Part shown: positions 2,938-36,577 of the stretch, one piece after another | How the letters are laid out: every line of letters starts with the position of its first letter | Position numbering within the stretch: position 1 is the stretch's first letter | Assembly (NCBI GenBank): GCA_034431195.1 | Contig: DAOUDP010000017.1 | Span: forward strand, 195,051-259,050 | Reading direction: 5' to 3' | Length of the DNA: 64,000 nt | DNA from: Dehalococcoidia bacterium | GTDB lineage: Bacteria; Chloroflexota; Dehalococcoidia; GIF9; AB-539-J10 | Position numbers and translations under genes: made by a program | The notes under the pieces: generated by a model | Seen by the model: only the letters and a program-made list of their open reading frames with translations | What the model was told of the DNA's origin: nothing | The model's database searches: none

Positions 2938-4464
2938 ATGGCTAGAGCGGTATTAGTATTAGACATGCTGTGTGGGTTTTTTGAGGAAGGGTATCCACTT
3001 TACTGTGGCGCCGAAGCTCGAAGTATCATACCCAATGTCAAGAGATTATTGGAGCGAGAGTTAGAGCAGAACTCAAAAATCTTCTATGTGTGTGACCACC
3101 ATATGCCCGATGACCCAGAATTCACAATGTTTCCGCCCCATTGCATTGAAGGCACCGCTGAAGCTGAAATCATACCCGAACTTTCCCCATATCCAGGTGA
3201 AATAATACCAAAAAGGACTTTTAGCTCTTTCTATAATACTCCTTTGGATGAGAAGCTGGAGGCACTCAAGCCCGAGACCATAGTCATCTGCGGTGTATGC
3301 ACCCATATTTGTGTTCTGCAGGCAGTAATTGATGCCAGAAACAGAGGTTACGAAGTTGAAATCCCAGTCGATTGCGTTGCTTCATTCGACAAGAGGGCAC
3401 ACTTCTTTGCTCTGGATTATATGGAGAAGGTGCTTGGAGCTAAATTACTCAGACCGACAGTCAAAATCTCACAGCCTCATTTCGAAATCCCTGATTCCTG
3501 GTTGAGTGGTGAAACCGCCGATATTTATTTTCCCCGCACCGTGGAAATACTCAAAAAGGAGAAAATAAACCCCGTAGCCACTATGGAGGTGTTCCCCAGA
3601 AGTGAAGGGATTCTCTGTGGGATGGAGGAAGTTAAAGCTCTGCTGGAGAAGGTGCTACCTGAAAGCAATAGTGAAGTCTGGGCATTATCTGAAGGCGAGC
3701 CTTTTGATGGAAAGGAAGTAGTCCTGAGGATAAAAGCTCCTTACCAGAGTTACGGGACTTATGAAACTACCTACTCGGGCATTCTTGCCCATTGTAGTGG
3801 CTGGGCAACTGCTGCCCGAGAGTGTATTAATGCTGCTCAGGGTATCCCGGTGATTAGTTTTGGTGCTCGCCATGTTCATCCTTCAGTAGTTGATGTTATG
3901 GAGTACTCCGCTATTGTGGGTGGTTGCACTGGTTGTGCCAGCACAAGTGGGGCAAAACTTGCCGGTATCCAACCCACAGGGACTATACCTCATGCTCTTA
4001 TTATTATTCTGGACAGCACCGCTCAGGCTACCCTTGCCTTTGATAAGCATATTCCTCCTGAAGTGCCGCGGATTGCCCTAGTGGACACTTTTGAAGATGA
4101 GGTCAGGGAAAGCGTTGCCGTGGCTAAAGCAATGCAGGGAAGGCTGCAGGGTGTAAGATTGGATACTCCTTCGGAGAGGGGCAGGGTCACTGCCGATTTG
4201 GTTAAGGAAGTAAGAGCCTGGCTTGACCTTGAGGGGTTCAAGCAGGTGAAAATTGTCGTCAGTGGCGGACTTGACCCGGAGCGCATCAGATATTTCATAA
4301 CCGAAGGAGCCCCTGTTGACATCTTCGCTGTGGGCAGTTACATCAGCGATGCTCCTCCAATCGATTTCACCGCCGACCTCCACGAGGTAGAAGGCAAGCC
4401 CATCGCTAAGAGAGGCAGAATGCCCGGCGTCACCCCAAATCCCAGACTAAAGAGGGTGATGTAA
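2938..4464 (+). CDS. fusion protein: N-terminal isochorismatase-fold nicotinamidase (PncA-like) + C-terminal nicotinate phosphoribosyltransferase (PncB-like, archaeal-type NAPRT)
   Basis: N-terminal ~170 aa resembles cysteine hydrolase/nicotinamidase (VLVLDMLCGFF..., ICGVCTHICV). C-terminal ~330 aa resembles NAPRTase family (ALVDTFEDE, GVRLDTPSERG, VSGGLD). Confidence 0.75.
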   Translation: MARAVLVLDMLCGFFEEGYPLYCGAEARSIIPNVKRLLERELEQNSKIFYVCDHHMPDDPEFTMFPPHCIEGTAEAEIIPELSPYPGEIIPKRTFSSFYNTPLDEKLEALKPETIVICGVCTHICVLQAVIDARNRGYEVEIPVDCVASFDKRAHFFALDYMEKVLGAKLLRPTVKISQPHFEIPDSWLSGETADIYFPRTVEILKKEKINPVATMEVFPRSEGILCGMEEVKALLEKVLPESNSEVWALSEGEPFDGKEVVLRIKAPYQSYGTYETTYSGILAHCSGWATAARECINAAQGIPVISFGARHVHPSVVDVMEYSAIVGGCTGCASTSGAKLAGIQPTGTIPHALIIILDSTAQATLAFDKHIPPEVPRIALVDTFEDEVRESVAVAKAMQGRLQGVRLDTPSERGRVTADLVKEVRAWLDLEGFKQVKIVVSGGLDPERIRYFITEGAPVDIFAVGSYISDAPPIDFTADLHEVEGKPIAKRGRMPGVTPNPRLKRVM

Positions 4465-4547
4465 GCTTCGTAGGCTCTATGACGGTTTGAGGTTCTCCTT
4501 GAAATTCCCCCGCCTTCTCAACTATGACCTTTTGCCACGGAGAACGT

Positions 4548-5363
4548 TTACTTGATTTTAGGGGCTGCTTTCAATTCCTGGATTCTAGCTGCTATAGCTC
4601 CACGGGCATCTTCTGCTTGAAAGCGTCTACTTTGAGCACGCAAATCAAACTCCATGGTTGCTTTTAGACTAACCTCAAGTGTAGTGTTTATCGCTCTCTT
4701 GGCTAGCCCCAGGGCTCCAGGTGATTTCATTGCTAATGTTCCTGCCAGATCAAGGGCAGCAGCCTCCAGATCCTTAGCGGGGACTACTCTATCTACCATG
4801 CCCATATCCAGGGCATCTTTTGCGCCTATCGGCTCACCGAAGAAAATAAGCTCCTTCGCTTTAGATAAGCCAACCAGTTGGATTAACCGGCACGCCCCAC
4901 CGGTGTCAGGGACTAGGCCCAGCTGGGTATATGTCATTCCAAGCTGTGCGTTTTTCGAAGCTACGCGGAAGTCACAGGATAAGGCAAGGTCGCATCCTTC
5001 TCCCAAGGCATAGCCCTTTATCGCTGCTATTACCGGCTTTTCCAGCCTTTCCAATCTGAAAGCCGCCTGCAGCTTACGCAGAAGCGTACCAACTTCTAGC
5101 ATGGGCCCTCTGGCTAGTTCCTCGGCATAGCTGAGATCCAATCCAATGGAGAATGCCTTGCCTGCACCAGTTATGATCACCACCTTTACTTCATCGTCAA
5201 CCCTCATATCCTCCGTGGCTGCCCATAATTCATCAATGATTACGTTATTCAAGGCATTCATAGCCTCGGGACGATTTAGGATTATCCTGGCAATTCCCTC
5301 CTTTTTCTCAACTATGACGCTTTGCAATTCCGCCATATGTGCCATATCTAAATTATAGCACAA
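4548..5363 (-). CDS. enoyl-CoA hydratase/isomerase (crotonase family)
   Basis: ARIILNRPEAMNALN, VVIITGAGKAFSIGLDL and GYALGEGCDLALSCDFR motifs of the crotonase superfamily. Confidence 0.85.
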   Translation of the reverse strand: MCYNLDMAHMAELQSVIVEKKEGIARIILNRPEAMNALNNVIIDELWAATEDMRVDDEVKVVIITGAGKAFSIGLDLSYAEELARGPMLEVGTLLRKLQAAFRLERLEKPVIAAIKGYALGEGCDLALSCDFRVASKNAQLGMTYTQLGLVPDTGGACRLIQLVGLSKAKELIFFGEPIGAKDALDMGMVDRVVPAKDLEAAALDLAGTLAMKSPGALGLAKRAINTTLEVSLKATMEFDLRAQSRRFQAEDARGAIAARIQELKAAPKIK

Positions 5364-5418: not shown

Positions 5419-6249
5419 CTAGGAAGCTTTCTTTACTTCATCAACTATCTGCGGCAGTATCTCGCCGGTCTTCCCTTGAATCAAGTAATCTGAGATACCT
5501 TCATGGGTAAGCGGTGTTGGCTCTGCGTTCAGCTCGATTATTTTCACAGTGGTTCTGTAACCGGTGACATGAAGTCCTGAAGGTAACGTTCCAGAGCGGG
5601 ATCTTGCCATCAGGGGCAGATTGGCAAAGGGGTAGACCACCGCCGATGTTCCACAGATAAGCATCAGGTCGCAATTTAATGCTTCTTTCTCCGACTCCTC
5701 TGCGATATCTGAAGGTATTGGCTCTGTAAAGTGGACGATGTCATCTTTTACTGTTCCGCCACATTTTTTACAAAGGGGCGGCAACCCACCCTCGTCTCTT
5801 AGTTTTCGCAAATCATACTCTTCCAAATCATATCTAGCGTTGCAGGAAACACACCTGAGTTTGAACGCATTGCCGTGATAATCCAGGACGTTTTTGCTCC
5901 CTGCTCTTTCATGTAAATTATCAATGTTCTGAGTAACCACACACTTCAAAATTCCCATCTTTTCTAATTCAGCTAAAGCGTAATGACCGGGATTTGGTTC
6001 TACTTCTCTTAGATCTCCGAATAAAGAAGGGCTGCTCAATCTTTCTTCCCAATATTCTTTTGGATTCTGCTGGAACTTCCCATAAGTCTGATAAGCTCTT
6101 CTTTCCGCCTCAGGTTGTTTGGTCCAGATCCCTTTTGGTCCCCTGAAATCGGGTATTCCTGACTCAGTGGACATGCCTGCGCCGGTTAATGCAATGGCAT
6201 ATTTGCTTTCCACCAAATCCTTTGCGGCATGGTTAATCAGCTTCTCCAT
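5419..6249 (-). CDS. cobB: NAD-dependent protein deacylase, Sir2 family (CobB-like)
   Basis: GAGMSTESGIPDFRG, VTQNIDNLHERAG, Zn-binding CxxC...CxxC (CVSCNARY...CKKCGG). Confidence 0.87.
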   Translation of the reverse strand: MEKLINHAAKDLVESKYAIALTGAGMSTESGIPDFRGPKGIWTKQPEAERRAYQTYGKFQQNPKEYWEERLSSPSLFGDLREVEPNPGHYALAELEKMGILKCVVTQNIDNLHERAGSKNVLDYHGNAFKLRCVSCNARYDLEEYDLRKLRDEGGLPPLCKKCGGTVKDDIVHFTEPIPSDIAEESEKEALNCDLMLICGTSAVVYPFANLPLMARSRSGTLPSGLHVTGYRTTVKIIELNAEPTPLTHEGISDYLIQGKTGEILPQIVDEVKKAS

Positions 6250-7283
6250 TTAAAGCCAATCCCTTCTATTTCTATTATAAGATTATCACTAATTTTTGTC
6301 CTGGCACCAAGGAATTCCTCGATCAGCCACAGGTTTGTTTCCACATGTTCGGTAATTCTGGGGATGGAATATCGACTAATTCCCTCAGCTAACCCGGCAT
6401 AGATTATAACCTGATCGGCTATATGCCTATCAACTGCAGCGCCGGTTTCAATATCCTCTATGAAATTTTGGGCTACATATCTTCCGATGGATTCCGACCT
6501 TCTTCCCGGTCTTCCTGCCCTATCTGAGCCGATTATGCTCCCCGAGCTTGTCCCGGCATATATTGCCAGGGCGGCTCCCTCTTGAAGCGAGCTTTTGTCG
6601 TAAATTTCTTGGATTTCAGCCTTATAACCCTGGGCGCTTAATGCTTTTCGGCATTCCTGTGCCATCCGTTGGCTTACTTTTTTCTCCTCCAGGTGTGAAG
6701 AGAGGGCGATTCCGTTAATGGTAGTAATTTTACCTTGTTCAACAAGGTTGAGGGGTCGTAATTTCTCTACCGGCTCAACTTCGATTTGTATAATTCCTCC
6801 GCCTTTGGGTACATAGCCGGGGCGGATTATTTCCAGCCGGGCTTCGATGCTTATTTGTCTCAAAAACGGAAGAAGGACAAATTTCATATGATAGGCTGAG
6901 GGGGCGAAGTCCTGGAATAACCCTCCTTCGAGCCTGAACTTGGATGGCTTTTGGGCGAAACAGGCTAGAGGTAAGAGAGCCTGGGCAAACATAGTAGTTG
7001 ACCCTGCTGTCCCTATATCCCAGTGAAATTCCCCACTTTTAAATCTTTCCTTTGGAATATAGGTGATTTCCTTAGAGCCAACTGCGGCGTTCTCCACTAC
7101 GCCGTGGCACATCTCCTGGCAAGCCTGAATCACCTTGAGATGCTGTGCTCTTAACCCCGGCTTATCCCTCTTCGCCCTGATATTCTGTATCTTTATTTCC
7201 TTGCCCAGCAGGCTAGCCAGAGCTATAGAGTAGCGGACTATGGTTCCACTTCCCGACTTTGCCCCGCCATCTATGGTTATCAT
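6237..7283 (-). CDS. rtcA: RNA 3'-terminal phosphate cyclase (RtcA)
   Basis: 348 aa; IDGGAKSGSGTIVRYSIALASLLGKEIKIQNIRAKR N-terminus typical of RtcA; 13-bp overlap with the Sir2 gene. Confidence 0.85.
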   Translation of the reverse strand: MITIDGGAKSGSGTIVRYSIALASLLGKEIKIQNIRAKRDKPGLRAQHLKVIQACQEMCHGVVENAAVGSKEITYIPKERFKSGEFHWDIGTAGSTTMFAQALLPLACFAQKPSKFRLEGGLFQDFAPSAYHMKFVLLPFLRQISIEARLEIIRPGYVPKGGGIIQIEVEPVEKLRPLNLVEQGKITTINGIALSSHLEEKKVSQRMAQECRKALSAQGYKAEIQEIYDKSSLQEGAALAIYAGTSSGSIIGSDRAGRPGRRSESIGRYVAQNFIEDIETGAAVDRHIADQVIIYAGLAEGISRYSIPRITEHVETNLWLIEEFLGARTKISDNLIIEIEGIGFKWRS

Positions 7284-7307: not shown

Positions 7308-7332
7308 GTGTCATTGCGAGCGAAGCAATGGC
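7308..7332. repeat. short copy of the GTCATTGCGAGCGAAGCAATG hairpin repeat family
   Basis: gtcattgcgagcgaagcaatggc: 6-bp stem cattgc/gcaatg with a 7-nt loop; same core as the repeats at 14961, 16242, 17895, 25920 and 36291. Confidence 0.6.
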
Positions 7333-11878: not shown

Positions 11879-11988
11879 CAAAGCTGCAGCAAAGCATGGA
11901 GCCTTTTAGATATAATAAGGCTGACAAAGGATGCAGGGAATAATAAGCTCGCATATATCGAAGTTATCTACCACGCCGCTGTTGTCGG

Positions 11989-12825
11989 GTGAGACTAAAA
12001 GTTGGGGTGAGAAGTAATATGATCGAGGTCAACCAGTTTGAGGAAGTTGTTCAAATCAAGATGAGCCGTGAGTTTGAAGGGCAACCGCTTTACTGGGTTG
12101 CGGCGTACCTTGTTGACGGGCTCCTTATTGATACCGGCTGTAAGCATACGGATGAGGAGTTGGTCGAATTTCTGGATGGGCAGAATCTCAAATTCGCCGT
12201 AAACACGCATTATCACGAAGACCATATCGGTGCCAATCATCTTTTGAAGCAGAAATTTGGCATCGAGATATTTGCACCTCGTGAATCAGTTCCTCTCATC
12301 AACCAGGTTCCCAAGTTGTATCCATATCAGGAGATGGTTTGGGGTTATCCGGAGCCCACTGAAGTGGATTGTTTGACTGAGAGAGTAGAAACTGGTCATT
12401 TTCACTTTGATGTGGTAGAGACTCCCGGGCATTGTAACGGACACGTGGCATTAATAGAGCCTGAAAAAGGGTGGTGCTTTTCGGCGGACCTTTTTATTTC
12501 GGAAAAGCCAAGGGTTATCCGCCCAGAGGAGGATATCACGGGCATTACAAGGTCAATGAAAAAGCTCGTTGCTCTCGAGACCGACAGACTTATTCTATTT
12601 ACCTCCATGGGCAATGTGGTACAGGATGGCCGCAATGCCCTTCAAACATGTATAGAATACTTCCAGGACTTGTCTCGAAGAGCAAAGCAGCTTGAAAAAA
12701 AGGGTCTCTCGGTTGTTGCTATTCGGGATGAAGTTTTCGGGAGAGAAAGTTCCCTTGCTGGTCTTACAGATGGACAGTTCTCGTCTGAAAACCTGGTCCG
12801 AGCTGCTCTTCGTGCACAGATATGA
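11989..12825 (+). CDS. MBL-fold metallo-hydrolase
   Basis: HYHEDHIGANH zinc-binding motif, downstream H and D ligands (TPGHCNGH, FSADLF); alternative start at ATG 12019. Confidence 0.8.
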   Translation: MRLKVGVRSNMIEVNQFEEVVQIKMSREFEGQPLYWVAAYLVDGLLIDTGCKHTDEELVEFLDGQNLKFAVNTHYHEDHIGANHLLKQKFGIEIFAPRESVPLINQVPKLYPYQEMVWGYPEPTEVDCLTERVETGHFHFDVVETPGHCNGHVALIEPEKGWCFSADLFISEKPRVIRPEEDITGITRSMKKLVALETDRLILFTSMGNVVQDGRNALQTCIEYFQDLSRRAKQLEKKGLSVVAIRDEVFGRESSLAGLTDGQFSSENLVRAALRAQI

Positions 12826-12942
12826 TTTACCATGAGCGGCACACGCAGATAACAACCTGTTTGCAGAAAAGGCAACGAAACACGATTCCATGAATGAGGA
12901 ATCAAGACGCTGGAGAATTATAGATGTATCTGGGGGTAATTT

Positions 12943-14037
12943 GTGAAACTTAAAAAGGTTGCCAAATGGACTTTGCTAAGTCTAGTAATTATCCTTGTAT
13001 CCCTTTCAGCCTGGGGATGGCTGGTCACCTATCATCCCGCTGAGGTGCAATCAGAGCCGATAATTTGCTCTGACCAGACACCTATTTTGAGTCCAGGGCA
13101 GAAACTGAAGGTGTTAAATTGGAATGTGCAGTTTATGGCAGGCAAGAATTATGTCTTTTTCTATGATTTACCAGATGGTTCTGGGCCTGATGAAAGACCC
13201 TCACCAGAAGATATTACTAAGACCTTCAGTGAAGTCTCCCGCATTATCCAGGATGAAAAGCCCGACATTATTTTGTTGCAAGAGGTTGATGCTGGAGCGA
13301 AACGCACAGATTATGAAGACCAACTGGCTCGCCTATTATCGTTACTACCTGAGGAATATAGCTGCTATACTTCTGCATTCGAGTGGAAAGCCTCTTTTGT
13401 TCCTCACCCACGGATTATGGGAGCTGTGGGGCTGAAAATAGCTATTATATCTAAATATAGGATAACACAGGCTACTCGCTATCAATTGCCTTTAATGCCC
13501 CAACCAGTAACTCGCGAATTTAACTTAAAGCGGGCTGTTTTAGAAGTCCATATGCCTGTAGAAAATGCTACAAATTTCGTAGTGTTAAACACGCATTTGG
13601 AAGCTTTTGCGCAGGGTACCGACACCCTGGAAAAACAAGTTAATCAAGTAGAATCTATTTTAGAAAACCTGACCCAAGAGGGCTATCCCTGGATTATAGG
13701 AGGCGATTTCAATTCGCTACCTCCTGGCAAAGCCTATGGTCTATTACAGGAAGAACAAAAGAAATATTATAGCCAGAAAACGGAAATAGAGTCCTTATTT
13801 GAAAAATACCAGGCTGTGCCCAGCTTGCCAGAAGTTAATAGTCCCGACTGTGAACAATGGTTCACGCACTTTCCCAACGACCCTGGCGTAGGAAAGCCCG
13901 ATAGGACTATTGATTATATCTTCCTAGCGAATAACGTTACCTTAGAAAAGCATTGTGTAAGGCAGTATGATACCCTGACAATATCAGACCATCTGCCTGT
14001 GCTGGCTGAGTTTGAACTACCTTCTTCCCCTGAATAA
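12943..14037 (+). CDS. endonuclease/exonuclease/phosphatase (EEP) family protein with N-terminal membrane anchor or signal
   Basis: Hydrophobic N-terminus (WTLLSLVIILVSLSAWGWLV), LNWNVQF, ILLQEVD, GGDFN, SDHLPV motifs of the DNase I-like EEP fold. Confidence 0.8.
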   Translation: MKLKKVAKWTLLSLVIILVSLSAWGWLVTYHPAEVQSEPIICSDQTPILSPGQKLKVLNWNVQFMAGKNYVFFYDLPDGSGPDERPSPEDITKTFSEVSRIIQDEKPDIILLQEVDAGAKRTDYEDQLARLLSLLPEEYSCYTSAFEWKASFVPHPRIMGAVGLKIAIISKYRITQATRYQLPLMPQPVTREFNLKRAVLEVHMPVENATNFVVLNTHLEAFAQGTDTLEKQVNQVESILENLTQEGYPWIIGGDFNSLPPGKAYGLLQEEQKKYYSQKTEIESLFEKYQAVPSLPEVNSPDCEQWFTHFPNDPGVGKPDRTIDYIFLANNVTLEKHCVRQYDTLTISDHLPVLAEFELPSSPE

Positions 14038-14612: not shown

Positions 14613-14937
14613 CGCCTTTCAGGATATTATCTATTATCTGCTTAAGTTCCCTTTTAGGTTTGTAGCCAACGATTTGCTGCACTGGCTGACCATTCTGGAA
14701 AACGAGCATGGTGGGAATGGCAGCGATGCCATACTTGGCGGCGATGGAGCTATTTCCATCCACATTGACCTTGGCAAAATTTACCTTTCCTTGATATTCC
14801 TTAGCCAGCTCTTCCAAAATAGGAGCGGCAGCCAGGCAAGGGCCACACCATTCTGCCCAGAAATCCACCAGAACCGGCGCTTTTGATTGTAAGACATCTT
14901 TTTCAAAGTCAGCTTCACTGTTTATTGTTATCATCAC
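14605..14937 (-). CDS. trxA: thioredoxin
   Basis: 110 aa with WCGPC active site. Confidence 0.92.
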   Translation of the reverse strand: MMITINSEADFEKDVLQSKAPVLVDFWAEWCGPCLAAAPILEELAKEYQGKVNFAKVNVDGNSSIAAKYGIAAIPTMLVFQNGQPVQQIVGYKPKRELKQIIDNILKGAK

Positions 14938-14952
14938 TCCTCCTTCTGGGAT

Positions 14953-15834
14953 TCAACAGCGATTGAGATTGCTTCGCTTCGCTCGCAATGACAATGGGGG
15001 CTTGCGATGACGATGGGGACTCGTAATGACATTTTCCAGGGAAAAGAACTCTATGGCATTCCTGGTAGTGTACTCAGCCACTGCAGCCTCGTCAATTCTC
15101 TTGAGTTGAGCCACAGCGCCGAGACTTCTGGTTATGTCACCAGGAGCGGAACGATATCTTGTCCCCCGGCCATAATATACCGGACAATCGGTTTCCAGAA
15201 GCAACTTATCCATTGGCGTTTCCTTAACCGCCCTCCTATGCTCTTCATGATATTCAGCGGCAGGAGTGGCGGAGACATAATAGCCGCCGTTAATTATATC
15301 CCTGAGGACACTGGAAAAGCCAGTAAACCAGTGAAAAACGGCTTTAGCTATGCCAGCATCTTGGACTAATTGTAGCCCATCTCTCCAGGCATACCTGGTG
15401 TGAAGGCTCACCGGCTTGTCGTATTTTTTAGCTAACCGTAAAAAGCGTGCTAACACTTCTTTTTGGAATTCTTTGGATGCTCTTTTTACCACCCTCTTGT
15501 CGTAATCCAGTCCTATCTCACCGATAGCAATTGCTTGGGAGATATTCTGCTTGATGAATTCCAGTTCACCATTGACCTGGGAAGAATTGAGTTCGCCTAA
15601 TTGCCACGGGTGCAATCCCAGTGCCGGGAAAACGAAGGAGGGATATTTCTGAGAAATCTCCAGCGTTTTTATATTCGAGCGATAATCTGAGCCCACGGCT
15701 ATGATGGCGACGATGCCCCTTTCCCGGGCATTATCAAGTGTAGAATCGAGATTTTGTAATTCATCCAGGTGAGCGTGAGTATCGATAAGGCTATACAACT
15801 TCAGGTTGCTTTTCAGGGCGTGTTTGCTCGGCAC
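14953..15834 (-). CDS. tatD: TatD-family metal-dependent hydrolase; C-terminal ~25 aa encoded by a repeat element; alternative TTG start near 15798
   Basis: IDTHAHLD, EIGLDY and ETDCP motifs; terminal ...SPHRHRKPPLSLRAKRSNLNRC is translated from the repeat at 14961-15035. Confidence 0.83.
   Translation of the reverse strand: MPSKHALKSNLKLYSLIDTHAHLDELQNLDSTLDNARERGIVAIIAVGSDYRSNIKTLEISQKYPSFVFPALGLHPWQLGELNSSQVNGELEFIKQNISQAIAIGEIGLDYDKRVVKRASKEFQKEVLARFLRLAKKYDKPVSLHTRYAWRDGLQLVQDAGIAKAVFHWFTGFSSVLRDIINGGYYVSATPAAEYHEEHRRAVKETPMDKLLLETDCPVYYGRGTRYRSAPGDITRSLGAVAQLKRIDEAAVAEYTTRNAIEFFSLENVITSPHRHRKPPLSLRAKRSNLNRC
14961..15035. repeat. 75-bp composite repeat (three ~19-bp GCTCGCAATGACA-like units ending AATGACATTTT), inserted in-frame at the 3' end of tatD
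   Basis: gattgagattgcttcgcttcgctcgcaatgacaatgggggcttgcgatgacgatggggactcgtaatgacatttt; near-identical architecture to 36291-36366. Confidence 0.7.
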
Positions 15835-16231
15835 GCATTTTCTTGTAATACGTGAGTCCCAGTTCAGTGGGCTTGTAGCTATAAAGGGAGAATTGTCCGG
15901 TTTCCCTGGTAATCATGGTTGCCGAGAGAAGCACTTTCACCGCTGTCTCTCCAGTTTGTCCTACCAGAAGGAGATGGTGGTCAGGCACCGGCTTATCGGT
16001 GTCTTCATATTCCTCACAAATGCTGGTTAGCAACTTTGCGGGCTCCTCTACCAGGTTCTTGAGAATCTCCTGCATTGCCTCAGTCTTTCTGATTATGTCG
16101 ACGAAATTTTCAAAAGCACCCATTTGACCCAAATGTATTTTAGACCATCGGATGGTAATATGACAAATAACGACTATTCGTTCACATGATTGGTGGTAAT
16201 ACACAGCTTCTTCTTGGTCGCTGTGAGGCAT
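15791..16231 (-). CDS. hypothetical protein (~146 aa); start at second ATG (16231) because the first ATG lies inside the repeat
   Basis: AAGGAG 6 nt upstream of ATG 16231; first listed ATG (16249) is part of repeat core gcaatgacaag; no recognisable domain. Confidence 0.45.
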   Translation of the reverse strand: MPHSDQEEAVYYHQSCERIVVICHITIRWSKIHLGQMGAFENFVDIIRKTEAMQEILKNLVEEPAKLLTSICEEYEDTDKPVPDHHLLLVGQTGETAVKVLLSATMITRETGQFSLYSYKPTELGLTYYKKMRAEQTRPEKQPEVV

Positions 16232-16241
16232 GTTCTCCTTT

Positions 16242-16585
16242 CTTGTCATTGCGAGGAGCGCCCCTCTTGTCGTTGCCGGGAAATCCTAAACTCAAATTAG
16301 TAGCTATCAGCTATCAGCCATTAGCTAACTGCTGACTGCTGATTACTGACTGCTTTTTCATATTGTTTAGTGTTTCGGATTTGGGATTTAGAGTTTTCTT
16401 TGTAAGGGATTGCCGCGCTTCGCTCGCAATGACAGTAAGAAAGGCTCGCAATGACACTAAGAAGGGCTCGAAATGATAATCTCCTTATTGTCACCCTGAG
16501 CGATAGCGAAGGGTCTGAAGGAGATTCTTCGGTCGCTGTGCTTCCTCAGAATGACAGTAAAAAGGGGCTCGCAATTACAGTGAAA
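16242..16585. mobile_element. MITE-like ~345-bp repeat element with GTCATTGCGAGG... / ...GCTCGCAATGAC inverted termini and internal tandem ~22-bp units
   Basis: Shares start (cttgtcattgcgaggagNgcccctcttgtcNttgccgggaaatcctaaactcaaa), internal tagctatcagc/gactgctttttcat blocks and terminal gctcgcaatgac with the copy at 25920-26155; no ORF. Confidence 0.6.
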
Positions 16586-16587
16586 AG

Positions 16588-17439
16588 TTGACGCTAAAAT
16601 TTGACGATGTTACAGTTGATTTACCTGTGAAGAGGATAGGTATTTTATACCACCCCAAGCTGGAGAAAGCTCGAAATTTGGTTGGCGAGCTGGAAGGGCT
16701 ATTGTCCACCAAGGGAGTTCCCTGCTGGCATTGTTCTGCCTGGGATGAAGACGAGGCTAGAGCTCAGGTAGCTGGCTCAGATTTAATCCTCAGCATTGGT
16801 GGTGATGGCACTATCCTGCACGCGGCACGGGTTATTATTCCTCTGTCGGTGCCGTTGCTGGGTATAAATTTGGGTGAACTGGGATTTATTGCTGAATTAA
16901 GTGCCGATGAGGCTTTGTCCAACCTACCTCGCGTGATCAATGGTGAGGGCTGGTTTGATGATAGGGCTATGCTTGAAGCCAACGTTGACGGTAGGAGTTT
17001 TCATGCTCTGAACGATGTTGTGCTGCGGAGTCCTATTGCTCGATTGATTCACATAAAGGCGAAAATTGACGGTGAAGAATTAACCACATATCGAGCTGAT
17101 GGTGTTGTCATTGCCTCGGCTACCGGTAGCACCGGCTATTGTCTGGCAGCCGGAGGACCGATTCTTTACCCTCAATCGACTCAAATAATCGCCATGCCGG
17201 TATCGTGTCATCTCGGTTTAAATTATGCAATGGTTTTATCATCACAGAGCGTGATTGAATTAAGCATTGCCGAAAGAGAGGAAGCCATGCTTAGCCTCGA
17301 TGGACAAGTTAATTTGTCCGTGAAAGAGGAGCAAGTGATCATGGTGAAGCTTAGCCCTTATACTACGCGGTTCCTGAGGATCCATCCACCGAGCCACTTC
17401 TATGTCTCGCTATGGCAAAGATTGAAGGAGAAGGGATAG
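16588..17439 (+). CDS. nadK: NAD kinase
   Basis: GGDGT motif (LILSIGGDGTILHAA), NDVV, DGVVIASATGSTGY; listed ORF starts at TTG. Confidence 0.85.
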   Translation: MTLKFDDVTVDLPVKRIGILYHPKLEKARNLVGELEGLLSTKGVPCWHCSAWDEDEARAQVAGSDLILSIGGDGTILHAARVIIPLSVPLLGINLGELGFIAELSADEALSNLPRVINGEGWFDDRAMLEANVDGRSFHALNDVVLRSPIARLIHIKAKIDGEELTTYRADGVVIASATGSTGYCLAAGGPILYPQSTQIIAMPVSCHLGLNYAMVLSSQSVIELSIAEREEAMLSLDGQVNLSVKEEQVIMVKLSPYTTRFLRIHPPSHFYVSLWQRLKEKG

Positions 17440-17440
17440 C

Positions 17441-17893
17441 ATGAAAGTTGATAAAGCAAAGGTGAGCGATGCTGATACAATGCATCGCCTGATTAATCAC
17501 TTTGCTGATAAAGGTGACGTGTTACCTCGCGCTTTAAGCGAGATATATGAGGGTATTAAAGATTTCTTTGTGGCCAGGAACAAAGGGAAAGTTGTCGCCT
17601 GTGCTGCTCTACATGTCATGTGGCTTGATTTAGCTGAAATCAGGTCTGTGGTTGTGGAGGAGGGAAGCCAGAATCAGGAAATTGGCTCTTCGCTTGTCCG
17701 TGCTTGCCTTGATGAGGCTAAAGCTTTAGGCATCCCCACCGTTTTTTCTCTTACCAGTGAACCGTCTTTCTTTGAAAAACATGGGTTTAAATTAATTGAC
17801 AAGGCGGAATTGCCTCGTAAGGTGTGGGGGGAGTGCTACCGCTGCCCTAAATTCCCTGATTGCGATGAGGTGGCTGTTATTTACCACGTTTAA
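17441..17893 (+). CDS. GNAT family N-acetyltransferase (short ArgA-like)
   Basis: 150 aa; acetyl-CoA binding-like segment (EIRSVVVEEGSQNQEIGSSLVRACLDEAKALG) and GNAT fold pattern. Confidence 0.75.
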   Translation: MKVDKAKVSDADTMHRLINHFADKGDVLPRALSEIYEGIKDFFVARNKGKVVACAALHVMWLDLAEIRSVVVEEGSQNQEIGSSLVRACLDEAKALGIPTVFSLTSEPSFFEKHGFKLIDKAELPRKVWGECYRCPKFPDCDEVAVIYHV

Positions 17894-17894
17894 T

Positions 17895-18012
17895 GTCATT
17901 GCGAGGAACAATAGCGGTTGCGAGGCGTAGCCGAAGCAAACTCGGAGCAACAGATTCCTCATTTCACTTGGAACAAGGATTGCCATGCCTTCGGCTCGCA
18001 ATGACAAGGAGG
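17895..18012. repeat. repeat-family copy with inverted GTCATTGCGAGG ... GGCTCGCAATGACAAGGAGG ends; 3' end supplies the SD for the NUDIX gene
   Basis: tgtcattgcgaggaacaatagcggttgcgagg ... gccttcggctcgcaatgacaaggaggag immediately upstream of ATG 18023. Confidence 0.6.
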
Positions 18013-18022
18013 AGGGAAAGTT

Positions 18023-18556
18023 ATGTTGATGCCGGAGAAAAAATTGTCTAGACAACAGCTCTATCAGGGTAAAGCGGTGAGTTTATATGTGGATACGGTA
18101 GAAAAACCAGGCGGGAAGACGACTACCAGGGAAGTGGTGGAGCACAGCAAATGTGTGGCGGTTGTTGTAATTGATGAACAGGATAACGTGCTTTTAGAAC
18201 GCCAGTTTCGTTATCCAGTGAGCAAGTTCTTGCTGGAGATACCCGCTGGACGGATTGACCCTGGTGAGGAACCTATTGACTGTGTCCGCCGTGAGTTGCA
18301 GGAGGAAATCGGCTATTATCCTCAAAAAATAGAGGAGCTTGGTGGTTTTTATTCCGTTCCTGGCTATGGCACGGAGTATCTATATTGCTATTTAGCTAGT
18401 GATCTTGTCCCCAGCCGCCTTATAGCTGAGGATACTGAAGACATAGAGGTAGTGCGAGTTCCCATAAGCAAGATTACTCAGCTCATCACTTCAGGCGAGA
18501 TTTGCGATGCTAAGAGCATCGCTGCGTTACTCCATTTTCTCGTGCAGCGAGAATAA
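18023..18556 (+). CDS. NUDIX hydrolase, ADP-ribose pyrophosphatase-like
   Basis: Nudix box GRIDPGEEPIDCVRRELQEEIG. Confidence 0.85.
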   Translation: MLMPEKKLSRQQLYQGKAVSLYVDTVEKPGGKTTTREVVEHSKCVAVVVIDEQDNVLLERQFRYPVSKFLLEIPAGRIDPGEEPIDCVRRELQEEIGYYPQKIEELGGFYSVPGYGTEYLYCYLASDLVPSRLIAEDTEDIEVVRVPISKITQLITSGEICDAKSIAALLHFLVQRE

Positions 18557-18575: not shown

Positions 18576-19382
18576 TTGACGGTGCCGAAGGTAAGGGTAA
18601 ACGACATCCAGATGTTCTACGAAGTACACGGGGAGGGCTTTCCGCTGATGATGATCATGGGGTTCACTGGAAACACAAGCTGGTGGGCCCCTCGCTGGAT
18701 TGAAACGCTCTCCGAGAAATTTAAGATAATTGCATTTGATAACAGGGGAGCTGGACGCACCGACATATCTGACAGGGAATATTCTATCAAATTGTTTGCC
18801 GACGATACTGCAGGTTTGATGGATGCTTTGGGTGTCTCCCGGGCTGATGTGCTTGGAATCTCAATGGGGGGGATGATAGCTCAAGAGCTTGTCCTTAACT
18901 ATACTGAGAAGGTGAAAAAAGTTGTCCTGTGTTCAACCCACTGCGGGGGTGCGAAGTCAGTTCAGGCGTCTGAGGAGGTGCTGGGAACGCTCACATCCGC
19001 TAGGAGTGGTGTGTCTGTGGAGGAAGTGGCCAGAATGACGATTCCACTTTTTTTCACCGAGGACTTCCTCAAAAATACCCCTGGCGTGGAAGAACTGGTA
19101 ATCGAGCAAATCACCAAGAACCCAATTTCAAATGAAGCCTTCATGCGCCAGATGAGCGCAATAATGCAATTCGATACTTATGATAGGCTGTCGCAGATCA
19201 AAACACCCACTCTGATACTGCATGGCAAGCAGGACATTCTCATACCCCCAGAAAACGGTTCAATCCTGGAAAAAGCCATACCCGGCTCCAGGCTTGTCTT
19301 CTTTGAGGATTGCGCCCACGGACTTTTGGAAGAGACGGAGGAGGTGCTTGGCACCATTTTGGAGTTTCTCGCCGAATCCTAA
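18576..19382 (+). CDS. alpha/beta-fold hydrolase
   Basis: GISMGG nucleophile elbow, HGxxD tail; GTG at 18582 with AGGATAAGGAGG 8 nt upstream is the likelier start. Confidence 0.8.
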   Translation: MTVPKVRVNDIQMFYEVHGEGFPLMMIMGFTGNTSWWAPRWIETLSEKFKIIAFDNRGAGRTDISDREYSIKLFADDTAGLMDALGVSRADVLGISMGGMIAQELVLNYTEKVKKVVLCSTHCGGAKSVQASEEVLGTLTSARSGVSVEEVARMTIPLFFTEDFLKNTPGVEELVIEQITKNPISNEAFMRQMSAIMQFDTYDRLSQIKTPTLILHGKQDILIPPENGSILEKAIPGSRLVFFEDCAHGLLEETEEVLGTILEFLAES

Positions 19383-19394
19383 CAATGTAAAAGC

Positions 19395-20468
19395 TTATTT
19401 CAGCTTCTCTATGACGGCATCGGCAACCTGGCTGGTGCCTACAGGATTGTCAGGCTTTAGATCATAGGTCAGGTTCTTGCCTTCCGCAATGACATCGGCG
19501 ATTGCCTTTTCCAGTTTATTGGCAGTGTCTGCTTCCCCCAGGTAGCGAAGCATCATTACCCCGGAGAGCATCATTGCCATAGGGTTGACCTTATTTTGCC
19601 CGGCATACCTGGGGGCGCTGCCATGTGTGGGCTCAAAGACAGCGATATCATCCCCGATATTAGCCCCGGGGGCTACTCCCATACTGCCGACTAATCCGGC
19701 ACAAAGCTCGGAGATAAAGTCTCCATAAAAATTGGGCAGGACCAGAACATCAAATTGCCACGGTTTTCGCACTAACTCCATACAAGTTGTATCTAAAACC
19801 ATGTCGTTAAATTCGATGTCGGGATATTCCTTAGCCACCTGGCGAGCGGTATCGAGGAAAAGGCCATCGGAGAACTTCAGTATATTGGCCTTGTGAATAG
19901 CGGTTACCTTTTTCCTGTTGTTTTGCCTGGCGTAGTCGAAGGCAAATTTGACAATTCGCCTGCTTGCTGTCTGGGATATGACTTTCAGACTCACTGCGGA
20001 ATCTTCCTTTATCCTATCTCCAGTTGTTTTGAAGACGAAATCCAGTAACTGTGTAGTCTGCGAGCTATCTCTGGCAAATTCTATACCTGAATAAAGGTCT
20101 TCGGTATTTTCCCTGACCACCACTATGTCTACATCTTTGAACGGTGTCGGTATGCCAGGATAAATTTTGTATGGCCGAAGGCAAGCGTAAAGGTCTAGTT
20201 CCTTGCGCAGAGCGACATTAACGCTTCTAAACCCACTACCGATGGGTGTGGTCACCGGCCCTTTTAGGGCAACTTTATTTTTTCTTATTGAGTCCAGTGT
20301 GGTTTGGGGAAGCGGCGTGCCAAACACTTCCTGAGCTCGGGAGCCTATAGTGACTACATCCCATTGAAACTGGACTCCGGTTGCCTCTAATACCCTTCGA
20401 GTGGCCTCAGCAACCTCGGGTCCTATACCATCGCCGGGGATGAAAGTTACCCTATGCTGCATGGTCAT
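19395..20468 (-). CDS. isocitrate/isopropylmalate dehydrogenase family beta-decarboxylating dehydrogenase (IDH/HICDH-like; may serve as LeuB)
   Basis: IPGDGIGPEV, KGPVTTPIGSGFRSVNVALRKELDLYACLRP, NLFGDILSDL-like motifs; the TPIGxGxxSxN block is more IDH/HICDH-like than classical LeuB; ATGA overlap with leuD. Confidence 0.8.
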   Translation of the reverse strand: MTMQHRVTFIPGDGIGPEVAEATRRVLEATGVQFQWDVVTIGSRAQEVFGTPLPQTTLDSIRKNKVALKGPVTTPIGSGFRSVNVALRKELDLYACLRPYKIYPGIPTPFKDVDIVVVRENTEDLYSGIEFARDSSQTTQLLDFVFKTTGDRIKEDSAVSLKVISQTASRRIVKFAFDYARQNNRKKVTAIHKANILKFSDGLFLDTARQVAKEYPDIEFNDMVLDTTCMELVRKPWQFDVLVLPNFYGDFISELCAGLVGSMGVAPGANIGDDIAVFEPTHGSAPRYAGQNKVNPMAMMLSGVMMLRYLGEADTANKLEKAIADVIAEGKNLTYDLKPDNPVGTSQVADAVIEKLK

Positions 20469-25859: not shown

Positions 25860-25919
25860 GATGGCTACGTATTATAGCAGATAAATATCAAATGCAGTAA
25901 ATGAAATATAGCCTCTTTC

Positions 25920-26155
25920 CTTGTCATTGCGAGGAGTGCCCCTCTTGTCATTGCCGGGAAATCCTAAACTCAAAGCACTAAACCCTAAACAAATCCCAAT
26001 TTGGTAGCTATCAGCCTTCAGCTTCATATCGACTGCTTTTTCATTTTTGCTCTGTCATTCTGCCTTTTGATTTTTGAGTTTTGCTTTCCTGAGATTGCCA
26101 CGCCTTCGGCTCGCAATGACAGACAAGGAAGGCTCGCGATAATATAAAGAATGAC
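25920..26155. mobile_element. second MITE-like copy of the GTCATTGCGAGG/GCTCGCAATGAC element (~235 bp)
   Basis: First ~55 bp nearly identical to 16242-16296; shared internal tagctatcagc and gactgctttttcat blocks; ends gccttcggctcgcaatgacag; no ORF. Confidence 0.6.
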
Positions 26156-35459: not shown

Positions 35460-36577
35460 TTTCTCTTTGCCTTCCTTATCTCACTAACCAACCCCTTGGT
35501 GGCTTTTTTGATATCTGGCTTGCTTAACACGGCACTAATCACAGCAACACAATCAGCACCAGCAGCAATTACCTCACCAACATTGCTTTGATCAATGCCA
35601 CCGATAGCCACCACTGGTGAGGATACTGCCTCCCTCACCTGCTTGAGAATATCCAGGCCGACGACAATAGCCCCTTCCTTGCTCTCCGTAGGGAACATCG
35701 AGCCCACAGAAATGTAATCCGCCCCTTCATCCCCCGCCTCAATTGCCCGTGATACCGTGGTAACCGAGCTACCAATTATCTTAGCCATCGGCAATTCTCT
35801 CCTGGCAACATGAACCGGCAGATCTCCGTAGCCAATATGGAGACCATCAGCATCGACTGCCAGTGCTAAATCCAAATAGTCATTGATGATGAATAAAATC
35901 CCTGCCTTCAGGCATAGCTCCTTAAGCCCCTCAGCAACGGGCAATAGTTCCACCATACTCCTTTGCTTATCACGAAGCTGGATAACCTTGGCCCCTCCCT
36001 GAATAACCTCTCGCGCTACCTCCAATTCATCCCTGCCACCCAGAACTTGCCTATCAACGATAACATAAAGGCCAGTCAACTCCTTCAGCTTATCCTGCCG
36101 CGTTAGTCTGGAAACCATCTTTTTTTCCACCGAATAAAGGCAGAACCTCACCTTCTCAAACCTGGTAGCATCCAGCTTGGAGCTCAGTTCATCCAGCTTG
36201 GCCAACTCCTCCAATACTCGCAGAGATTCCTCCACCCTGTTGGCATTGGCTTCGACCAGGCTGGCTAAATCAGGGTAGGACTGCTTGTTGAGATTGCTTC
36301 GCCTTCGGCTCGCAATGACAGAGGGAGGGCTCGCAACGACAGAGGGGCAGCTGTCAATGACATTTTCTCTGCCGACATCGTGTTCCGAGTCCCGTTCCTC
36401 AAGAAGAATTATGCCCAGAGACTCACCGACTTCAGCAAGACTGTGACGCGTGGTTCTTAACTGCTGGCTTAGTGTAGCGTCATTAAGAACGAAGCGGGCA
36501 ACATCTTCCAGAACACGCAGCCCCTCAGCAGAACGATTGAGGTTGGCATCAACTATACGAAGCAGTTGGTGAGGCAC
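35447..36577 (-). CDS. thiE: thiamine-phosphate synthase (ThiE) with ~160-aa N-terminal extension containing an in-frame repeat insertion
   Basis: C-terminal ~215 aa carries ThiE TIM-barrel motifs (LYVIVD, IQLRDK, GADYISVG, AIGGI); N-terminal extension has two helical repeats (DANLNRSAEGLRVLEDVARF / EANANRVEESLRVLEELAKL) split by repeat-encoded ENVIDSCPSVVASPPSVIASRRRSNLNK. Confidence 0.8.
   Translation of the reverse strand: MPHQLLRIVDANLNRSAEGLRVLEDVARFVLNDATLSQQLRTTRHSLAEVGESLGIILLEERDSEHDVGRENVIDSCPSVVASPPSVIASRRRSNLNKQSYPDLASLVEANANRVEESLRVLEELAKLDELSSKLDATRFEKVRFCLYSVEKKMVSRLTRQDKLKELTGLYVIVDRQVLGGRDELEVAREVIQGGAKVIQLRDKQRSMVELLPVAEGLKELCLKAGILFIINDYLDLALAVDADGLHIGYGDLPVHVARRELPMAKIIGSSVTTVSRAIEAGDEGADYISVGSMFPTESKEGAIVVGLDILKQVREAVSSPVVAIGGIDQSNVGEVIAAGADCVAVISAVLSKPDIKKATKGLVSEIRKAKRKCQG
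36291..36366. repeat. 76-bp composite repeat inserted in-frame inside thiE
   Basis: gagattgcttcgccttcggctcgcaatgacagagggagggctcgcaacgacagaggggcagctgtcaatgacatttt; same architecture as 14961-15035. Confidence 0.7.

Follow-up and report, generated by a model that had tools for sequence, protein, structure and literature searches.

Tagged hairpin repeats and their probable partner enzymes

Short palindromic repeats in which an unpaired tag precedes a hairpin are the closest described relatives of a repeat family found in 64 kb of the genome of an uncultured Dehalococcoidia bacterium (assembly GCA_034431195.1, contig DAOUDP010000017.1, positions 195,051 to 259,050); this whole stretch is here called the window, and coordinates are given in its own numbering. 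In Neisseria the repeat NTS, CGTCATTCCCGCGMAVGCGGGAATCYRG, and related motifs of the SRM type flank ssnA, which encodes a 94-aa single-domain GIY-YIG nuclease (Chenal et al. 2025, PMC11893778). SsnA binds the hairpin only as single-stranded DNA (ssDNA), on one strand only and not as RNA, and its cut falls a few nucleotides before the motif; binding depends critically on the C that follows the palindrome, and cutting on the three bases that precede it (PMC11893778). In N. meningitidis the enzyme lowers transformation by NTS-bearing DNA, and the authors of that study likened the NTS-ssnA-NTS layout to an insertion sequence (IS) (PMC11893778).

The neisserial repeat dRS3 and its kin had been grouped by Di Nocera et al. 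(2013, PMC3733652) as CGTC-tagged repetitive extragenic palindromes (CGTC-REPs), in which the tag often reads TGTC, the stem opens with A and T, the tail is short and unpaired, dimers are frequent and no transposase is associated. Their stems are continuous over 8-9 bp and their loops are of 4-5 nt, and they were described from five phyla, Chloroflexota not among them (PMC3733652). The same paper raised the possibility that the enzyme that mobilised the CGTC repeats has become extinct.

It is argued below that the window repeats are probably strand-oriented ssDNA hairpin sites of this CGTC/TGTC-tagged superfamily (the SRMs, with NTS and dRS3 as their representatives in Neisseria), spread by an IS-like element and thereafter reshaped. 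The window units show the qualitative features of an SRM, namely the tag, the palindrome, the trailing C and, in other genomes, the flanking of a gene of ssn type.

The repeat family and its basic unit

A count on both strands that allows one mismatch finds 15 instances of the core GTCATTGCGAG in the window; 100 dinucleotide-preserving shuffles of the same sequence average 0.89 (maximum 5), and none of them reaches 15. The sequence-only reading from which this work started had described a structured, non-coding, intergenic family with inverted GTCATTGCGAG / CTCGCAATGAC termini, made up of two long copies and of shorter members at four places, and in these respects it has held up well: only short mechanical open reading frames (ORFs) overlap the copies, shorter members are present at 7309-7331, 14967-15031, 17894-18006 and 36292-36362, and the two long copies can be aligned from end to end. 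A repeat finder recovered the near-identical 5' end that had been claimed for the long copies (62 nt, 94% identity), together with a 22-nt tandem unit and a hairpin-containing block of 27-34 nt at 14967, 16408, 17975, 26090 and 36289.

The basic unit is a hairpin of 23-34 nt, TGTC-ATTGC-(variable inner helix)-GCAAT-C, and not the copy of 240-350 nt. Read on the strand that places the tag first, a full unit comprises a pyrimidine-rich tail, TGTC, ATTGC, GAG, an insert, CGAA or similar, GCAAT and C; its parts are an unpaired TGTC tag, a sequence-conserved outer stem of 5 bp (ATTGC/GCAAT), a small internal loop, a variable inner helix and a C straight after the palindrome. The boundaries drawn by the sequence-only reading have been moved outwards to include the tail of roughly 10 nt that lies outside the GTCATT core.

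Nine hairpins, full or variant, were counted in the window, together with about 12 half-sites. Six of the hairpins are canonical full units (7309-7331, 14967-14993, 16408-16434, 17978-18006, 26093-26121 and 36292-36320; two sense and four antisense with respect to transcription), and two are variant units with compensatory changes in the stem, TGTCA-CCCT...AGGG-TC at 16489-16515 and TGTC-ATTCT...AGAAT-C at 16523-16556. The C that follows the palindrome is present in seven of the nine (as GCAATC, AGAATC or AGGGTC), both stem variants included, the exceptions being 7309-7331 (GCAATGG) and a decayed unit at 17894-17943 (GCAAAC). A half-site has the tail and TGTCATTGCGAG but not the other half of the palindrome, and half-sites form tandem arrays with a period of 19-24 nt; TGTCATTGCGAG itself is found exactly at 10 sites in the window, and the variants TGTCACCCTGAG and TGTCATTCTGAG retain the TGTCA tag. 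The predicted fold of the units is an outer stem of 5 bp with an inner stem of 3 bp, while the two long copies and a 113-nt inverted doublet are predicted to form long hairpins through their inverted arms (z -4.0, -2.2 and -3.4 respectively).

Distribution and covariation of the inner helix

The sequence-only reading would have been refuted by a lack of further copies, and this is decisively contradicted, such copies being very abundant well beyond this genome. The pattern GATTGC-N4-24-CTCGCAATGACA gave at least 120 matches in IMG/VR and at least 120 in the GTDB species genomes. The hosts among the matches listed include Alpha-, Gamma- and Deltaproteobacteria, Neisseriaceae and Helicobacter; Dehalococcoidia, Anaerolineae and Chloroflexus in the Chloroflexota and Oscillospiraceae in the Bacillota; Flavobacterium, Mucilaginibacter, Chryseobacterium, Hymenobacter and Prevotellaceae in the Bacteroidota; Microcoleus and Nostoc among Cyanobacteria; and also Planctomycetota, Nitrospirota, Patescibacteria, Omnitrophota, Armatimonadota, Aminicenantes, Ignavibacteriota, Gemmatimonadales and Spirochaetaceae. 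Complete chromosomes of Dehalococcoidia, namely OZ253540.1, OZ220731.1, OZ253486.1 and OZ244811.1, bear the unit. About 360 matches would be expected by chance in the whole 596-Gb collection. Among those listed, the insert starts with TTCG, CACG or CGCG in 137 of 151 cases, as against about 1% by chance, and the matches are therefore members of the family rather than random occurrences.

Across the matches listed, as in most of the window copies, the core of 11-12 nt is identical from phylum to phylum. The inner helix covaries: among the 232 distinct units in these matches the same register is occupied by pairs such as GCCAGTG/CACTGGC, GGAGCGC/GCGCTCC and GAAAATT/AATTTTC, and the inner folding energy is -2.94 kcal/mol as compared with -0.98 kcal/mol in shuffles (Wilcoxon p = 4e-24). 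Solitary half-sites, taken with up to two mismatches and within 70 nt, lie on the tag side of 10 out of 143 full units and on the other side of just one of the 143 (genome loci L126-L245 of the matches listed), with a spacing that is mostly 18-28 nt when the viral and genome loci listed are taken together. The arrays are therefore general to this sub-family and not a local oddity of the window.

Some of the unit-bearing viral contigs are clearly phage-like, portal protein genes adjoining the units in L027 and L060. The IMG/VR contigs L019, L045, L071 and L048 are packed with the unit; L045 carries 15 exact copies, several of them in tandem arrays, and in L019 each of five units lies directly upstream of the start of a gene on the same strand. 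A full-text search of the literature for the repeat sequence strings returned primer coincidences only.

Association with a GIY-YIG nuclease gene

When ORFs within 150 nt of 318 units were clustered into families, and phage structural proteins from related viral contigs were left aside, one family was found to recur in unrelated cellular genomes, that of a GIY-YIG protein of about 95 aa; no transposase family emerged from this clustering. A profile of the protein yielded five loci. At three of them, L163 (Oscillospiraceae), L203 (Pseudomonadota) and L245, the gene lies between inverted units of the window type with their TGTC tags pointing outwards (in L203, for instance, as TGTCATTGCGAGCTTGCGAAGCAATCC ... 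gene ... GGATTGCTTTGCAAGCTCGCAATGACA), and L232 holds a degraded copy of the gene with a unit on one side. The flanked proteins are single-domain GIY-YIG proteins (PF01541 only in Pfam, and nothing significant in NCBIfam). Homologues in IMG/VR have a GTC-tagged palindrome nearby in 23 of 23 cases and on both sides in 19 of 23, as judged by a lenient detector with which 30% of control windows also score. The stems of these flanking palindromes vary by lineage, L252 carrying the canonical Neisseria-type GTCATTCCCGCGAAAGCGGGAATCC and L251 the window type. A gene-bearing element with the same termini as the window repeats does, then, exist, its product being a GIY-YIG nuclease without demonstrated transposase activity.

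Comparison with the described systems

Set beside the SRMs of the NTS-Ssn system, the window unit is alike in being an oriented hairpin of 20-50 nt with a (C/T)GTCAT tag on its 5' side and a C directly after the palindrome; both are intergenic, clustered and present in many phyla, and in both inverted copies flank a GIY-YIG gene of about 95 aa (for the window type in other genomes, not in the source organism). The window type differs, however, in its ATTGC/GCAAT stem, its internal loop, its variable inner helix of 3-8 bp and its attached half-site arrays, as also in being present in Dehalococcoidia and in phage-like contigs and in having no cognate gene in view within the window. With the CGTC-REPs it shares the tag (here TGTC), a stem starting AT...AT, unpaired tails (CTC, CCC or CCT), frequent inverted dimers and the lack of association with a transposase, but in place of their continuous stem of 8-9 bp it has an outer stem of 5 bp and an inner one of 3-8 bp, parted by an asymmetric internal loop, and its inserts measure 4-24 nt.

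Other families are more distant. The REP/REPIN-RAYT system and the bacterial interspersed mosaic elements (BIMEs) of Proteobacteria also comprise short hairpins, inverted doublets and mosaic clusters, and include a gene for an enzyme of ssDNA hairpins that is flanked by its own repeats; the window tag, however, is TGTC and there is no GTAG, while the linked gene encodes a GIY-YIG nuclease and not a Y1 HUH transposase. The BOX elements of Streptococcus pneumoniae (boxA-boxB(n)-boxC) are modular and intergenic, with a middle or terminal sub-unit whose copy number varies between strains, but they are unrelated in sequence and have no known nuclease partner, so that the likeness is one of architecture only. 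The cyanobacterial repeats (STRR, the SDR of Elhai 2008 and the Nezha element) were considered and set aside: the window is not cyanobacterial, given that HIP1, GCGATCGC, has a count of 0 in it and that its NAD kinase is closest to proteins of Dehalococcoidia and subsurface metagenomes.

Differences between close relatives

Syntenic relatives are available in the form of L001-L004, with an NAD kinase identity of 95% and a DNA identity of 92-96%, and of L005 (GCA_013282455.1), with an NAD kinase identity of 91%; in addition, a scaffold of ENA assembly ERZ23499022 is 100% identical to the window over 6.4 kb. For the long copies the comparison of orthologous sites covers copy 1 (16235-16587), the relatives' contigs ending at copy 2 (25913-26147).

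Small structural variation among these close relatives lies mainly at the units. Over 17 kb of alignment with L001 at 92-96% identity, all four indels that do not involve genes fall at units. Within the alignment itself indels of 8 nt or more occur only at 14987, where the window has 38 nt more than L001 in the form of two extra half-sites (L001 having the hairpin alone), and at 17905, where a hairpin of the window is interrupted by an extra 27 nt; breaks in the alignment other than differences in gene content also fall at units. At the site of copy 1 both L001 and L005 retain the right arm and the centre, the centre differing, and lack the left arm only. Where the window and L001 have 42 nt between two genes, L005 carries an additional doublet of about 150 nt with blurred boundaries; the gene beside the unit at 7309 is a different one in L005. 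In a related pair of phage contigs, one half-site of 23 nt has been gained or lost in register with GTCA. Relatives differ at units, in other words, by the gain or loss of modules, and never of a whole long copy.

At 20466 (window 20465-20468) L001 has an insertion of 66 nt (13850-13915 of that locus) that contains a GTCATTCTGAG half-site and a CCTCTCCCGTCCCGGGAGAGG hairpin; the flanking minus-strand genes, which encode proteins resembling the aconitase small subunit and isopropylmalate dehydrogenase, overlap by 4 nt in the window. The CCTCTCCCGTCCCGGGAGAGG hairpin is of a second type, which also adjoins units in the phage contigs L009 and L023. This second family, CTCTCCC...GGGAGAG, is found in L001 and in phage contigs and is absent from the window.

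Interpretation

On the reading favoured here, which by analogy with the published biochemistry of SsnA we consider probable, each hairpin would be bound, when exposed on ssDNA, by a single-domain GIY-YIG nuclease of the Ssn family of about 95 aa, and the nuclease would cut a few nucleotides 5' of the tag, which in these units would place the cut within the pyrimidine-rich tail. The repeats would most likely have spread from an IS-like element with the layout hairpin-ssn-hairpin and from derivatives of it that had lost the gene. Local slippage, or unequal recombination between the repeated cores, could then have given rise to the half-site arrays, the inverted doublets and the mosaic long copies. 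The cognate nuclease of this organism, its cutting of the units and the route by which they multiplied are all things that we infer.

Several results weigh against this account. The published search string for SRMs, HGTCWYN(0-2)YYVSBRHN(0-5)WNVSBRGN(0-2)RNCYNB, has 0 matches in the window on either strand (shuffles give a mean of 0.19), the outer stem of the window units being of 5 bp and interrupted and their loops longer than the string permits. The pairing of ATTGC with GCAAT, which the sequence-only reading had proposed as a hairpin of the core, is indeed predicted, but as free DNA the single units fold weakly (-2.7 to -6.3 kcal/mol), for the most part no better than shuffles. Four or five of the 120 genome loci listed hold a GIY-YIG gene, most units lying far from any ssn, and the only relative of the flanked proteins in the PDB is the UPF0213 protein BH0048 (E = 8e-4). 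Neither the 64 kb of the window nor the loci of relatives that were searched (L001-L005 and L281-L286) contain a GIY-YIG ORF, which leaves the presence of a cognate nuclease in this organism unproven. Finally, no clean insertion junction and no target-site duplication was seen in any of the fetched loci, where the only such changes were in-register indels of half-sites.

A bolder form of the same idea would have the hairpin-GIY-YIG-hairpin unit as an active, autonomous ssDNA transposon in which the GIY-YIG protein serves as the transposase, with the solitary units, doublets and long mosaics of the window as non-autonomous derivatives that are still being formed in this Dehalococcoidia population and the half-site arrays as footprints of cleavage and rejoining at GTCATT. 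We think this unlikely; we know of no insertion-sequence family that uses a GIY-YIG nuclease as its transposase.

The main rival is that the window repeats are relics, palindromic remains of a past invasion by SRMs or CGTC-REPs that now have no active partner, that vary by slippage and homologous recombination, and whose effects on their neighbours are incidental. This would account for the absence of an ssn gene from the window and from the relatives' loci searched, for the many units that are decayed or reduced to half-sites and for indels that keep the register of the repeated cores, which is what slippage would give; extinction of the enzyme has, moreover, already been raised for the CGTC repeats (Di Nocera 2013, PMC3733652). 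However, identity of the core in most copies and across phyla is hard to square with neutral decay, new composite insertions are present in relatives that are as close as 91-95% in NAD kinase identity, and the genome inspected amounts to 64 kb only. We hold this explanation to be distinctly improbable.

A third possibility is that the long copies are classical miniature inverted-repeat transposable elements (MITEs), internally deleted derivatives of a DDE-type IS with GTCATTGCGAG terminal inverted repeats that would have moved by cut-and-paste and duplicated their target sites; the sequence-only reading had called the family MITE-like. Inverted termini, a lack of coding capacity and lengths of 110-350 nt are indeed features of the long copies and the doublet, which also fold as long hairpins, and the two long copies are homologous from end to end. 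A non-autonomous derivative of some kind is plausible, because in other genomes a gene for a small protein lies between the same termini. The long copy does not stand as the unit of the family. Against classical MITEs, neither the long copies nor the doublet are flanked by direct repeats, the orthologous site of copy 1 in L001 and L005 lacks the left arm only, and the core also occurs as solitary hairpins and as tandem half-sites. Furthermore, an exact 20-mer from the junction of left arm and centre is found in JGI metagenomes at only four loci (L281-L284), which represent two further sites, and the only gene found between these termini encodes a GIY-YIG nuclease and not a transposase. DDE-type MITEs are thus very unlikely, because there is no duplication, no polymorphism for presence or absence of a whole element and no transposase partner found.

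A purely RNA-level role, in which the units would be stem-loops in 5' untranslated or intercistronic regions that control the stability, processing or translation of downstream mRNA, might draw on the covariation of the inner helix, on the position of several units directly upstream of ribosome-binding sites (NUDIX, 18007-18022; five in L019) and on the promoter-like sites formed by pairs of half-sites, but is the least credible of all, because the canonical hairpins are of mixed orientation (two sense as against four antisense) and no Rfam family matches at the gathering threshold across the window, with noise alone at E <= 5 over 14900-18100, to which may be added that terminator-like T-runs are lacking, that SsnA does not bind RNA (PMC11893778) and that units also occur in inverted pairs and on either side of a nuclease gene.

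If the repeats are indeed tagged ssDNA hairpin sites, then an uncultured Dehalococcoidia lineage, many other phyla and phage-like contigs take their place within the Ssn/SRM hairpin-nuclease system. That system was already known, and what is added here are details not previously reported: the nested helix, the half-site arrays and the presence in phage-like contigs. Current counts of SRMs probably underestimate the family, because a widespread sub-family, TGTC-ATTGC...GCAAT-C with its nested variable helix, escapes the published search string. The half-site arrays and the split inverted arms would offer natural substrates for the study of Ssn nuclease action on genomes.

Architecture of the long copies

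A four-way alignment shows the two long copies (16235-16587 and 25913-26147) to be homologous over their full length, with modules in the same order: a left arm, a AAATCCTAAAC block, a heptamer-rich centre, an inverse T-rich block, a hairpin and tail units, the right ends of both being formed by GCTCGCAATGAC units. The long copies are mosaics of inverted units around a heptamer-rich spacer. The left arm consists of two half-sites and the right arm of a full hairpin followed by half-sites, with two variant hairpins in addition in copy 1; no coding capacity is evident, only short mechanical ORFs overlapping them.

In copy 1 the left arm (16235-16279, plus strand) carries the tandem half-sites TGTCATTGCGAG at 16244-16255 and TGTCGTTGCCGG at 16268-16279, with pyrimidine-rich tails and with no partner half of the palindrome nearby. 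The low-complexity centre (16280-16407) contains AAATCCTAAACTCAAA, AGCTATC repeated 3.7 times, GCTGACT repeated 4.4 times (the tandem repeats lie at 16302-16354) and the inverse block TTTCGGATTTGGGATTTAGAG. The full hairpin unit at 16408-16434 reads TGTCATTGCGAGCGAAGCGCGGCAATC on the minus strand and is followed, on the same strand, by two tandem half-sites of period 22 at 16445-16478, the second of which has decayed to CGAAATGATA; the corresponding tandem repeat, 16422-16476, has a period of 22 and 90% matches. The segment 16235-16465 folds into a long hairpin (z -3.99). Beyond it come the two variant hairpins, TGTCACCCTGAGCGATAGCGAAGGGTC at 16489-16515 on the plus strand, in which the stem CCCT/AGGG replaces TTGC/GCAA and which is conserved in L001, and TGTCATTCTGAG...CGAAGAATC at 16523-16556 on the minus strand, with the stem ATTCT/AGAAT. 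The terminal half-site, TGTAATTGCGAG on the minus strand (16568-16579), has a tail that abuts the start codon of the NAD kinase gene at 16588. That gene (16588-17439) has its closest proteins in Dehalococcoidia and subsurface metagenomes; the gene to the left of copy 1 encodes 110 aa and starts near 16123, and not at 16249, according to the gene calls of its orthologues.

Copy 2 has its left arm at 25913-25957 (plus strand), with tandem half-sites at 25922-25933 and 25946-25957, a low-complexity centre at 25958-26092 with AAATCCTAAACTCAAAGCACTAAACCCTAAAC, GGTAGCTATCAGCCTTCAGC and TTTTGATTTTTGAGTTTT, and then, on the minus strand (26093-26143), the full hairpin at 26093-26121 and a half-site at 26133-26143 that has decayed to CTCGCGATAAT. 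At the L281-L284 sites inner modules of copy 2 are joined with hairpin units in other arrangements. L281 and L282 on the one hand and L283 on the other, which are one locus in different samples, differ by a block of about 70 nt that contains GGTAGCTATCAGCCTTCAGC and heptamer repeats; this polymorphic block is the centre module of copy 2.

The contig of L001 (which ends at 18869 of the locus) stops some 0.5 kb short of copy 2; L286, from an independent assembly of the source sample, ends at 3728 (corresponding to window 25981), inside the left arm of that copy. These contig ends, lying near or within copy 2, suggest that the repeats break short-read assemblies.

Short members and neighbouring genes

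The inverted doublet at 17894-18006, with its TGTC tags pointing outwards, is made up of a left unit at 17894-17943 (plus strand), which is decayed and has an insertion of 27 nt within its hairpin, and a right unit at 17978-18006 (minus strand). It occupies the gap between an acetyltransferase gene and a NUDIX gene and folds as one long hairpin (z -3.37). Two groups on the minus strand have the form of a hairpin followed by half-sites: 14967-15031, between thioredoxin and TatD genes, with the hairpin at 14967-14993 and half-sites at 15001-15011 and 15020-15031 (period 19), and 36292-36362, with the hairpin at 36292-36320 and half-sites at 36330-36341 and 36351-36362 (period 21). The solitary short hairpin TGTCATTGCGAGCGAAGCAATGG at 7309-7331 (plus strand) has G and not C after the palindrome, and its folding energy is -6.3 kcal/mol (z -3.2).

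For assembly and annotation it matters that units lengthen ORFs and supply sequences resembling ribosome-binding sites and promoters, and that contigs of relatives end at them; such effects on neighbouring genes are real, though probably incidental. The ORF of the TatD family runs through the units (window 14953-15031), and because of this read-through its C-terminus varies between relatives, the protein being of 271 aa in L001 (8485-9300), 293 aa in the window, where it ends ...SPHRHRKPPLSLRAKRSNLNRC, and 308 aa in L005 (8238-9164). The unit at 17978-18006 has a purine-rich tail, AAGGAGGAGGG, placed 5 nt ahead of the start codon of the NUDIX gene, with the same layout in L001, and this tail (window 18007-18025) looks like the ribosome-binding site of that gene. 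Each long copy also has a sigma-70-like ATGACA-N16-18-GATAAT that faces the downstream gene and is formed by an intact half-site and the decayed one that follows it, at 16451-16480 (N18) and 26116-26143 (N16), although these are matches to a consensus only and not significant by themselves; the decayed AATGATAAT of the promoter-like site is kept in L001 and L005. Among differences in gene content, L001 has an extra segment of about 1.1 kb (3575-4707; window 11894-11960) with a gene for a protein of 107 aa and one for a DUF6326-like protein of 129 aa, and another of about 0.84 kb (5571-6410; window 12823-12870) with an ORF of 38 aa and mscL.

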